From: an uncultured bacterium
GTDB lineage: Bacteria > Bacillota_I > Bacilli_A > RFN20 > CAG-826
Assembly (NCBI GenBank): GCA_949299165.1
Contig: CASFZJ010000014.1
Coordinates: 1-63,338 of the forward strand
Reading direction: 5' to 3'
DNA length: 63,338 nt
Below the pieces are notes generated by a model, which was given only the letters and a program-made list of their open reading frames with translations, had not been told where the DNA came from and ran no database searches. Positions 39,450 through 40,092 of the stretch are shown here, piece after piece. A program made the position numbers and the translations under genes. How positions within the stretch are numbered: the first letter of the stretch is position 1; each line of letters starts with the position of its first letter.

Positions 39450-39664
39450 GAGAAAAATGATTTAACTAAAAAGTGAAGTACTTGTACTTCGCGAGTTCGA
39501 TTCTCTACCTTCTATGATCTTTTTTAAGATCTAGTGCTCGTGAGGAGCTTCCTGAATCATGGAACCCACTCCGACGAATCGTGTGGAAAACGTTCTCAAA
39601 CAGGCTTATGGCTTATATTCGGCTGCCGGTCAACCTACATTGATAGCGTCAAATCATTTTTCTC
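39450..39664 (-). ncRNA. Putative structured ncRNA, copy 1 (family not recognised)
   Basis: 17-bp closing stem (fully paired with one G.U on the minus strand), 100-bp core identical to copy 2, internal hairpins incl. CGA-UUCG-UCG. Confidence 0.6.
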
Positions 39665-39913
39665 TACATTTAATTTATCTAGTTATTTTTAGGTAAAGTA
39701 ATATGCTATCAAATATTGCTTTTATAGATAAAACTTGCAAATCTTCTTGTGTTCTCATAAGTAGCGCTAAGTCAAGATTAATCACCTCCTTTGTTAAAAA
39801 TTTAATAAGAAATTAAATATTGGGAAATTAAGAAATAAAGATTTATGAATTTTTGAAAGTTTCATAAAGCTAATGAACTCTAAATTTCTTAATTTGTAAA
39901 GTGTTTTGTTGCT

Positions 39914-40092
39914 GAGAAAAATGATTCAACATTGGTCTGCAGTACTTGTAGTTCTGGGGACACAAAGGATTATCCATCTATGATCTTTTTTAAGATCTAG
40001 TGCTCGTGAGGAGCTTCCTGAATCATGGAACCCACTCCGACGAATCGTGTGGAAAACGTTCTCAAACAGGCTTATGTCAAATCATTTTTCTC
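39914..40092 (-). ncRNA. Putative structured ncRNA, copy 2 (family not recognised)
   Basis: 17-19-bp closing stem (two G.U on the minus strand), identical 100-bp core, different variable slot. Confidence 0.6.

Follow-up and report, generated by a model that had tools for sequence, protein, structure and literature searches.

Tandem orphan TnpB omega-RNA-like cassettes whose guide-position segments match neighboring tRNA genes in an uncultured bacterium

Two cassettes with tRNA-matching slots occupy an ORF-free gap

The DNA analyzed here (the window) is a 63,338-nucleotide (nt) stretch from an uncultured bacterium, contig CASFZJ010000014.1 of assembly GCA_949299165.1 (1.43 Mb in 39 contigs; called G000 below), and its feature of interest is a pair of tandem repeats that we term cassettes 1 and 2. 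Both lie in a 1.1-kb gap between an MFS transporter gene (positions 38192 to 39403) and a fused ABC/FtsX gene (40519 to 43317), and no open reading frame (ORF) of at least 60 amino acids was found within 39404 to 40518. Cassette 1 (39441 to 39665, minus strand), an orphan omega-RNA-like gene, was delimited by alignment with copy 2 and with three cassettes of a sister species, and by its BLAST match to a copy linked to a tnpB gene. Cassette 2 (39905 to 40093, minus strand), delimited by alignment and fold, has the same architecture but lacks 38 nt of the 5' scaffold in this assembly. The repeat unit measures about 190 to 225 nt, with about 240 nt between the units. The cassette cores (39508 to 39610 and 39974 to 40076; 103 nt) are 99% identical, whereas the short slots that accompany them are mutually unrelated.

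The window contains five tRNA genes, among them tRNA-Asp(GTC) (35713 to 35788) and tRNA-Phe(GAA) (35805 to 35880), which are spaced 16 nt apart and are each single-copy among the 43 tRNAs of the genome. We found that the slot of cassette 1 (39489 to 39505, minus strand) is identical at 17 of 17 positions to plus-strand segment 35759 to 35775 of tRNA-Asp (tRNA positions 47 to 63, the end of the variable loop and the T arm). The slot of cassette 2 (39954 to 39971, minus strand), which lies in the same register, is the reverse complement of plus-strand segment 35841 to 35857 of tRNA-Phe (tRNA positions 37 to 53) with one extra base in a T run. In a minus-strand RNA, slot 1 would therefore be antisense to the T arm of tRNA-Asp, and slot 2 would be sense tRNA-Phe with one extra U. 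An earlier note on this DNA, made from the sequence alone, had described both matches, their common place in the repeat and their opposite polarity, and each of these observations was confirmed, the common place by alignment of the two copies.

Controls placed the matches well outside what unrelated sequences produce. In a fuzzy search of all 39 contigs, slot 1 was matched exactly by itself and tRNA-Asp and by no other place at fewer than 2 errors, and slot 2 matched only itself and tRNA-Phe at up to 3 errors. The shuffled-sequence comparison that the earlier note had proposed came out in its favor, since 0 of 200 shuffles of either slot scored as high against the 43 tRNAs listed by ARAGORN. 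The chance that a given 17-mer equals some tRNA 17-mer is about 3e-7. The whole genome has three exact tRNA fragments of at least 17 nt outside tRNA genes (expectation, about 0.4): slot 1 and two more that each adjoin their own tRNA gene. The slot-tRNA matches are real and far beyond chance.

The cassette core is homologous to the omega-RNA of a tnpB gene

A BLAST search of cassette 2 against its own genome gave a third match, at C15:28398-28470 (76% identity over 78 nt; E, 7e-8), which begins directly past the stop codon of a 447-amino-acid ORF on the same strand. This ORF matches OrfB_IS605 (1.7e-12) and Cas12f1-like_TNB (3.2e-12) and, among solved TnpB structures, 8iaz (3.9e-21) and 8h1j and 8exa (about 1e-17 each); LaTranC chains are also among its structural matches. 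The genome encodes four TnpB homologues, on contigs C15, C2, C7, and C1, and none lies in the window.

Among the genomes searched, the only other one with cassettes belongs to a sister species (G030), where the counterparts of the MFS and ABC genes flank three cassettes: A, the ortholog of copy 1; C, that of copy 2; and B, which is additional. RNAalifold applied to these five cassettes and two tnpB-linked copies gave 23 base pairs, 7 of them with compensatory changes. The stem of the terminal hairpin is kept through three different sequences, GATC/GATC in the cassettes of the window, GATTC/GAATC in cassettes B and C of G030, and AAATT/AATTT in a tnpB-linked copy. A covariance model of the cassettes (R1), which has cassette 1 itself in its training set, scored 133.8 bits (E, 4.9e-30) at 39506 to 39647. 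By eye, without a scored alignment, the 5' cassette arm resembles the final codons of tnpB.

The earlier note had taken 38 nt of copy 1 for an insert. This segment is instead ancestral; it is part of the tnpB-linked omega-RNA scaffold and is present in all three G030 cassettes. In contigs from runs X4, X5, and X6 (two studies), 40068 continues into 39610. Copy 2 therefore carries the 38-nt segment in other assemblies or strains, and its deletion here is either polymorphic among strains or due to collapse of the repeat during assembly.

Because of its homology to the RNA that follows tnpB, we identify the cassette core as a TnpB omega-RNA scaffold read from the minus strand, and because no tnpB lies in the window while the four homologues are on other contigs, we call it "orphan." We consider it very probable that the cassettes are orphan omega-RNAs with the slot as guide. 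Orphan TnpB guide RNAs are a known kind; the new aspect is the presence of tandem, stalk-flanked, tnpB-less omega-RNA genes at one kept locus.

Searches for other RNA families gave nothing that competes with this assignment. At gathering thresholds, Rfam had no match at the cassettes, the six window matches being a T-box and the five tRNAs; at E values up to 10, the interval from 39300 to 40500 gave 12 weak matches, all far below thresholds, and no CRISPR repeat at threshold. Across five tnpB or orphan loci, neither a group I intron nor any other Rfam family was found at an E value of 0.1 or less, apart from a single tRNA match. A CRISPR array was considered and rejected on the length of the repeat unit, the lack of Cas1 in the genome, and the lack of an Rfam CRISPR repeat at threshold.

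The variable slot lies at the guide position

The last scaffold hairpin of cassette 1 (39512 to 39534, minus strand) is of the subterminal right-end type, with a stem kept across sequences, and the guide follows 6 nt on; its counterpart in cassette 2 was placed by alignment at 39978 to 40000 (minus strand). In all seven sequences compared (the five cassettes plus both tnpB-linked copies), 6 nt (GAWGGN-like) separate this hairpin from the start of the variable block, and slot length is 14 to 17 nt in 5/5 cassettes. In IS200/IS605 elements, the right end is described as stopping at this point, where the guide begins as the DNA that flanks the right end (10.1101/2023.03.14.532601).

The tnpB-linked copy shows what can happen at this position. 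The locus on C15 and its G030 ortholog on C56 are collinear, with 91.4% identity over 3,073 columns. In the 16 nt directly after the scaffold, however, 13 of 15 sites differ between the two species, while the next 12 nt and the end of the neighboring gene are conserved. Given a fourfold-site divergence of 75/280, point mutation cannot explain the change at 13 of 15 sites (P about 2e-6). The other two orthologous tnpB pairs (C2/C22 and C7/C106) have no clean block replacement, with raised divergence after the scaffold, and we therefore take the guide replacement at C15/C56 as a single event and not as a rule. An inverted copy of its own scaffold was tried as the source of the G030 tnpB-linked guide and rejected, since its score of 11 was reached by 25 of 300 shuffles.

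Features of the cassettes favor a minus-strand RNA

In RNA order, each cassette comprises a 5' stalk arm, the scaffold, the guide slot, a hairpin, a 3' stalk arm, and a tail. The stalk of cassette 1 pairs 39648 to 39664 (5' arm, the part with the likeness to the tnpB end) with 39450 to 39466 (3' arm; inverted repeat I6), and that of cassette 2 pairs 40074 to 40092 (5' arm, also found in the fold) with 39914 to 39932 (3' arm; inverted repeat I8), all on the minus strand. The stalks measure 17 to 19 bp, and over the five cassettes 96.4% of cells pair and 13 of 17 pairs are invariant. Since so many pairs are invariant and the covariation score was reached by 178 of 500 shuffles, which does not separate it from chance, conservation of the stalk is shown and an RNA helix is unproven. 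In the short hairpin directly 3' of the guide (39475 to 39490 in cassette 1, minus strand; its cassette 2 counterpart lies at about 39940 to 39956), 80% of cells are paired and one pair has changed on both sides.

Several properties bear on the strand. The stalk duplex has a predicted energy of −21.0 kcal/mol in the minus sense and −17.8 kcal/mol in the plus sense in cassette 1, and of −22.4 and −19.5 kcal/mol, respectively, in cassette 2. The minus-strand fold of cassette 2 (−58.2 kcal/mol; z, −5.02) was not equaled by any of 200 shuffles, compared with a z of −2.45 for the plus strand, and G-U pairs favor the minus-sense stalk in 3 of 5 cassettes. From the fold z score, the G-U stalk pairs, and the orientation of an upstream module, the minus strand is favored as the RNA strand.

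This module (40250 to 40400, minus strand, found by BLAST) faces cassette 2 and then cassette 1 and is kept at the same place in G030. It belongs to a family of AT-rich sequences of about 150 nt with more than 30 copies in the genome; by BLAST, copies precede each of the four tnpB genes, two further orphan scaffolds (C6:54386-54519 and C11:40038-40163), and ordinary genes. The module resembles a common promoter or leader, possibly with an operator. Additional copies were seen at C15:30214-30868 (five in tandem), C8:10901-11917, and C11:39578-39735. The module ends in a hairpin in which an anti-Shine-Dalgarno stretch is paired with the ribosome-binding site (…CCTTCGTATTAAGTGAAGG…), and the palindrome CGATAATTATCG often precedes it. 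At the other side of the array, a terminator-like hairpin between the MFS gene and cassette 1 (39402 to 39424; identified in a consensus scan of the plus strand) could mark the end of a minus-strand array transcript.

The same features can be turned against a minus-strand guide RNA. The locus might be a miniature inverted-repeat element that acts at the DNA level, with the stalk arms as its terminal inverted repeats of 17 to 19 bp, or it might yield a plus-strand RNA antisense to omega-RNA. The mostly invariant stalk, whose covariation score shuffles can reach, suits this idea, and whole-cassette energies are equal or slightly lower in the plus sense. However, we found no target-site duplications and no dispersed copies, the scaffold covariation follows the strand of the tnpB-linked RNA, and the only promoter-like module faces the minus strand. 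We regard this alternative as extremely unlikely.

Slots are conserved in a sister species but have drifted from the tRNAs

The tRNA-Asp and tRNA-Phe genes of G030 are identical to those of G000 over their whole length. Slot A of G030 nevertheless differs from tRNA-Asp at 2 of 17 sites (guide positions 6 and 13), and slot C shares the extra base of its G000 ortholog and has one mismatch to tRNA-Phe. Slot B has no tRNA match (195 of 200 shuffles were equally good); nor do the tnpB-linked guides of either species, the shuffles that equaled the score ranging from 171 to 200 of 200 for these guides and slot B. By this comparison, the tRNA link concerns two of five distinct guides (2 of the 3 slot types), is inherited and not renewed, and is not kept perfect. 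The co-variation of slots with their tRNAs for which the earlier note had proposed to look was not seen in this one relative, and neither was upkeep of a perfect match, the tRNAs being identical and the slots having drifted.

Orthologous cassettes differ by 0.21 and 0.18 substitutions per aligned site, with the changes mainly in the middle stems and loops; conservation is seen in the slots and the right-end tip and in the stalk and the 5' scaffold. Among slot sites, 3 of 32 have changed, compared with 75 of 280 fourfold-degenerate sites (P = 0.015; with the ABC-gene rate, P = 0.0002). With the fourfold rate of the tnpB gene itself (17/113), the difference is not significant (P = 0.27). This small test on one species pair leans toward constraint on the guide sequence. 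In cassette A of G030 (L016, 157 to 188), the right-end tip (a hairpin remnant and about 6 nt) is duplicated, which gives two successive guide-like positions, and the inner hairpin is broken.

Cutting of the tRNA genes by the cassette RNAs is doubtful

The earlier note had argued that opposite polarity fits recognition of double-stranded tRNA-gene DNA better than simple antisense pairing. Simple antisense pairing with tRNA is indeed a poor fit, in that it cannot explain the sense-oriented Phe slot. Since the scaffold belongs to the guide family of a DNA-targeting nuclease, recognition of double-stranded DNA in either orientation would be its natural mode, and the slots are at the guide position; to that extent the suggestion stands. 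It does not extend well to active targeting of the tRNA genes, the absence of which we judge to be the likelier state.

A TnpB target requires a motif 5' of the guide-identical strand. Next to the would-be targets, the sequence at this place is CCAGAC for Asp (minus strand) and ACTGAA for Phe (plus strand), and the 1-nt bulge of the Phe guide falls at positions 6 to 8, in the motif-proximal seed, in both species. An alignment of the four TnpB homologues shows acidic residues at three RuvC motif positions (D, E, and D; E-R-D in the C7 copy), which we take to be the catalytic ones. In view of the Phe bulge, the single-copy tRNAs, and the intact acidic RuvC positions, it appears somewhat more probable that the RNAs spare the host's own tRNA genes than that they cut them; binding without cutting is possible.

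These observations bear directly on the idea that the cassettes encode working tRNA-gene guides, whose RNAs would direct TnpB, for cutting or for binding only, to DNA of the tRNA-Asp/tRNA-Phe operon in the service of homing or insertion, control, or guarding. The slots have the position and length of guides and occur in either orientation, as such a function would allow. The two targets are adjacent, and a distance of 55 bp separates their would-be motif sides, which face each other; the slots changed less than fourfold sites did, and the scaffold structure is kept. Moreover, transposons with Cas12k, a descendant of TnpB, are described as using fixed short tRNA-gene guides as attachment sites (10.1101/2021.02.06.429022). 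Working guides should nonetheless agree with their targets, whereas in G030 the same tRNAs face slot A with 2 mismatches and slot C with 1 mismatch and a bulge, the Phe bulge is motif-proximal in both species, and the two target flanks differ. Cutting the single-copy tRNA-Asp gene would be lethal, and the TnpBs look catalytically intact. Neither rve transposase nor Cas1 is encoded in the genome, and 1 of 3 slot types and 2 of 2 tnpB-linked guides have no tRNA match. We consider working tRNA-gene guides unlikely.

A related proposal moves the target outside the chromosome: the guides could be directed at phages or integrative elements that carry tRNA genes or tRNA-derived attachment sites, with the host spared for want of an adjacent motif. 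The T-loop and anticodon regions of tRNAs are common attachment cores, and the conservation of the slots would suit such a task. So would the near absence of places in these two genomes for the remaining guides at up to 2 mismatches. Slot B in G030 and the G030 tnpB-linked guide in both genomes have no place with fewer than 3 mismatches, the G000 tnpB-linked guide has none in G000 with up to 2 errors, and slot B in G000 has one 2-mismatch place, all at chance level. Exact scans of a viral collection with three guides gave 1, 1, and 0 matches, though, which is about chance for 17- to 18-mers, and the Phe-type match was in non-tRNA sequence. Moreover, because attachment identity usually runs through the tRNA 3' end, host gene and attachment site would have the motif side of the Asp target in common. 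Guides against foreign DNA are therefore a very improbable reading.

The slot segments may have been copied from the neighboring tRNA operon

The two source segments are 66 nt apart in one operon, lie 3.7 to 4.2 kb from the array, and are matched in opposite orientations; the nearer tRNA genes, for Gly at 38010 and for Lys at 43821, were not used as a slot source. The genome was also searched for proteins that could move or acquire such segments. It encodes no Cas1 (the control was positive in 7 of 14 genomes), no rve transposase (control positive in 6 of 14), and no reverse transcriptase of the RVT_1 family; TniQ gave 0 matches, but the control also gave 0 of 14, so this last search is uninformative. 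The lack of rve and Cas1 speaks against the link to CRISPR-associated transposons that the earlier note had drawn. Its other suggestion, a putative spacer-like capture of tRNA fragments, is the better half of that reading.

The explanation that we prefer starts from an IS200/IS605-family, tnpB-only element, of which contig C15 carries an intact copy, the one with the 447-amino-acid TnpB. The cassettes would be tnpB-less copies of its right-end omega-RNA (reRNA) module, with a 5' arm derived from the end of the tnpB reading frame. Both units would probably be transcribed as one RNA from the module at 40.25 to 40.40 kb; the stalks may be cut, RNase III being our guess for the enzyme, thus freeing the units, and the cassette RNAs would be loaded in trans by a TnpB encoded elsewhere. 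The guide segments would have been copied at the DNA level, in both orientations, from the tRNA-Asp/tRNA-Phe operon. Routes to such a copy could be a template switch while this hairpin-rich region was being repaired or replicated, short-patch repair, or a carried-over flank. A short templated patch from nearby DNA would explain the proximity, the two orientations, and the short length together. Slippage-type events have occurred in the region: copy 1 has a 7-nt duplication, copy 2 is polymorphic for the 38-nt deletion, and in cassette A of G030 the right-end tip is duplicated.

The last of these routes can also be framed as a full alternative, in which the element was formerly inserted within additional or foreign copies of the tRNA-Asp and tRNA-Phe genes, and excision about 17 nt downstream, or a deletion, moved the right end together with its flank. 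Guides of IS200/IS605 elements are described as right-end flanking DNA (10.1101/2023.03.14.532601), another tnpB element of this genome abuts tRNA-Thr, and fragments of Y1 transposase exist in the genome. This scenario calls, however, for two insertions in opposite orientation, each trimmed to about 17 nt and followed by an identical downstream context (hairpin, stalk arm, and tail). Both tRNAs lack a second copy, no further tRNA sequence extends past the slots, and the Y1 fragments belong to an element with unrelated ends. We find carried-over flanks improbable.

Several points stand against the explanation that we prefer. Copy 1 matches tRNA-Asp perfectly. Few parts of the cassettes are as well conserved as the slots, and this would be expected of a sequence with a specific task more than of a neutral relic. 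In length the tRNA-derived stretch corresponds to a TnpB guide, and its start coincides with that of the guide; a random templated patch need do neither. Microhomology at the junctions is only 1 to 2 nt, and we know of no mechanism in these elements that swaps a 15- to 17-nt block between fixed flanks. No target-adjacent motif could be derived, with no alignable empty site and no second copy, so that tRNA targeting is possible; a GDPD-like gene, the neighbor of tnpB, is present in 54 of 60 genus genomes, but the best protein identity outside G030 is 62% and the downstream DNA is unalignable. Finally, every comparison rests on one pair of close kin, the two genomes that carry cassettes.

Weighing these points, we would give about even chances to the proposition that the slots were copied from the neighboring operon and have no present action on the tRNA genes. 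For the explanation as a whole, an orphan omega-RNA array with guides copied from the operon that are not working tRNA guides, we hold a modest preference. If the RNAs have a present role, candidates are a harmless TnpB competitor, a regulator, and a guide against something outside the databases.

Other observations touch on tnpB elements and tRNA genes. At C1:56067-56083, just past the terminator of tRNA-Gly(TCC), lies a 17-nt inverted copy of an internal segment of that tRNA. At 1125 to 1460 of locus L025 (C1:63152-66802), about 150 nt separate the end of a 427-amino-acid TnpB homologue from a convergent tRNA-Thr(GGT). Past the terminator of this tRNA, about where the guide of the C1 tnpB element belongs, is an inverted copy of the tRNA 3' end (ACTGGCACCA), adjoined by an inverted pseudo-tRNA-Thr. 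There are thus hints of a wider link between tnpB elements and tRNA flanks. Other members of the genus (loci L032, L040, L033 to L036, and L041) have a different TnpB family of 426 to 428 amino acids, whose copies diverge right after …TTTGGTATAACGG; as a post hoc observation, 11 bases of TTTGGTATAACGG equal the D arm of the G000 tRNA-Thr(GGT).

Relation to known guide RNA systems

The closest relatives of the cassettes are TnpB omega-RNAs, with which they share a homologous, co-varying scaffold, a subterminal hairpin, a short spacer, and a guide of about 16 nt. They differ in having no attached tnpB, in their tandem arrangement, and in the conserved sequence that follows the guide in place of an arbitrary flank. 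PATE-like IS200/IS605 elements are likewise described as protein-less units with an omega-RNA for TnpB in trans (10.1101/2023.03.14.532601). In contrast to PATEs, the cassettes are found at one conserved locus, two or three in tandem, bracketed by stalks, and with a guide that is not simply the local flank. The units have a hairpin of the right-end type, and by eye no left end or common motif was found 5' of the five units. R1 has five places in G000 and five in G030; stalk-flanked units are confined to the tandem array at the one syntenic locus, and the rest are, in each genome, a tnpB-linked copy and two remnants.

TldR guide RNAs are described as host-kept TnpB-type guides that are fixed and act against host DNA; they adjoin tldR, which encodes a nuclease-dead protein, and match promoters beside a target-adjacent motif (10.1101/2023.11.30.569447, PMC13622181). 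Here, no TnpB-like gene is in the window, the homologues keep the acidic RuvC positions, and the matches are inside tRNA genes. The homing guides of type V-K (Cas12k) transposons, reported as short, fixed tRNA-gene guides of a TnpB-derived effector (10.1101/2021.02.06.429022), resemble the slots in target class. The present genome differs in having no rve, no CRISPR repeats, and no Cas1, and the guide is fused to a full scaffold. As in CRISPR arrays and in TranC systems as generally understood, tandem guides lie behind one promoter-like region and would serve an effector of the TnpB/Cas12 type. Unlike in those systems, the whole scaffold of about 200 nt is repeated with each guide, there is no split into a short repeat and a trans RNA, and there are no adaptation genes. 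Word searches of open-access text returned no description of tandem, stalk-flanked orphan omega-RNAs or of tRNA-matching TnpB guides.

The guides of TnpB are thought to be fixed by the landing site of the transposon. At this locus, one scaffold carries different guides within a conserved frame and without a nuclease gene, and the locus is kept in two species with two guides that appear to be copied from host tRNA genes. If the RNAs are loaded and used, this would outline a path from a transposon guide RNA to a host-encoded, multi-guide locus, a step that is missing from accounts of how TnpB led to CRISPR-type systems and tRNA-homing transposons. The boldest version, a host-kept mini-array of trans-acting TnpB guide RNAs made of stalk-released units, each with an exchangeable slot of about 16 nt, and loaded against tRNA-gene DNA, we hold to be quite unlikely. 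Were it true, the slot would be swapped between paralogous cassettes and, between sister species, in place at the tnpB-linked right end. The array would then represent a natural stage between a guide that equals the transposon flank and a programmable CRISPR-like array, with the target class of the Cas12k transposons. If the RNAs are inert, the locus would be a clean natural case of short templated patches in the guide position and a caution against predicting targets from guide matches alone.

Distribution of the cassettes and additional features of the genome

Searches for further copies indicate a narrow distribution. In a BLAST search of 61 relatives, cassettes were found in G000 and G030; a 28-nt match in G032 was unconfirmed by R1 with filters off (best E, 0.027, a gapped fragment). 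R1 had matches in 2 of 60 genus genomes, and a search for close TnpB homologues succeeded in 2 of 401 genomes of the order. A 21-nt pattern matched 19 loci in metagenome contigs, none of them a cassette (best R1 E, 0.91). An 18-nt scaffold pattern matched 15 loci in genome contigs; two come from one Bacilli metagenome-assembled genome, probably G030, and R1 gave an E value of 0.14 on one of the other 13 (L082). The viral collection contained one pattern locus, without an R1 match, and no TnpB relative. One 10-nt seed of guide 1 recurs in the ABC gene at about 40620 to 40629, which we take as chance, with seven such 10-mers in the genome.

Fragments of a Y1 (IS200-type) transposase were seen at three contig ends (C22:19647-19874, C7:57947-58084, and C13:39511-39648). 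Their placement suggests that a multi-copy IS200-like element, with ends unrelated to the cassettes, breaks the assembly. At C8:10900-12000 and C6:53990-54110, there are tandem units in which a hydrophobic peptide of 26 to 27 amino acids follows the promoter-like module. These peptides end in charged tails (…KKDDRDEDR-like) and recall type I toxins; some 230 nt downstream of the C6 copy begins an orphan omega-RNA-like scaffold. Elsewhere in the window, a T-box leader lies at 15276 to 15482 on the minus strand, scoring 99.7 bits, above the Rfam threshold.

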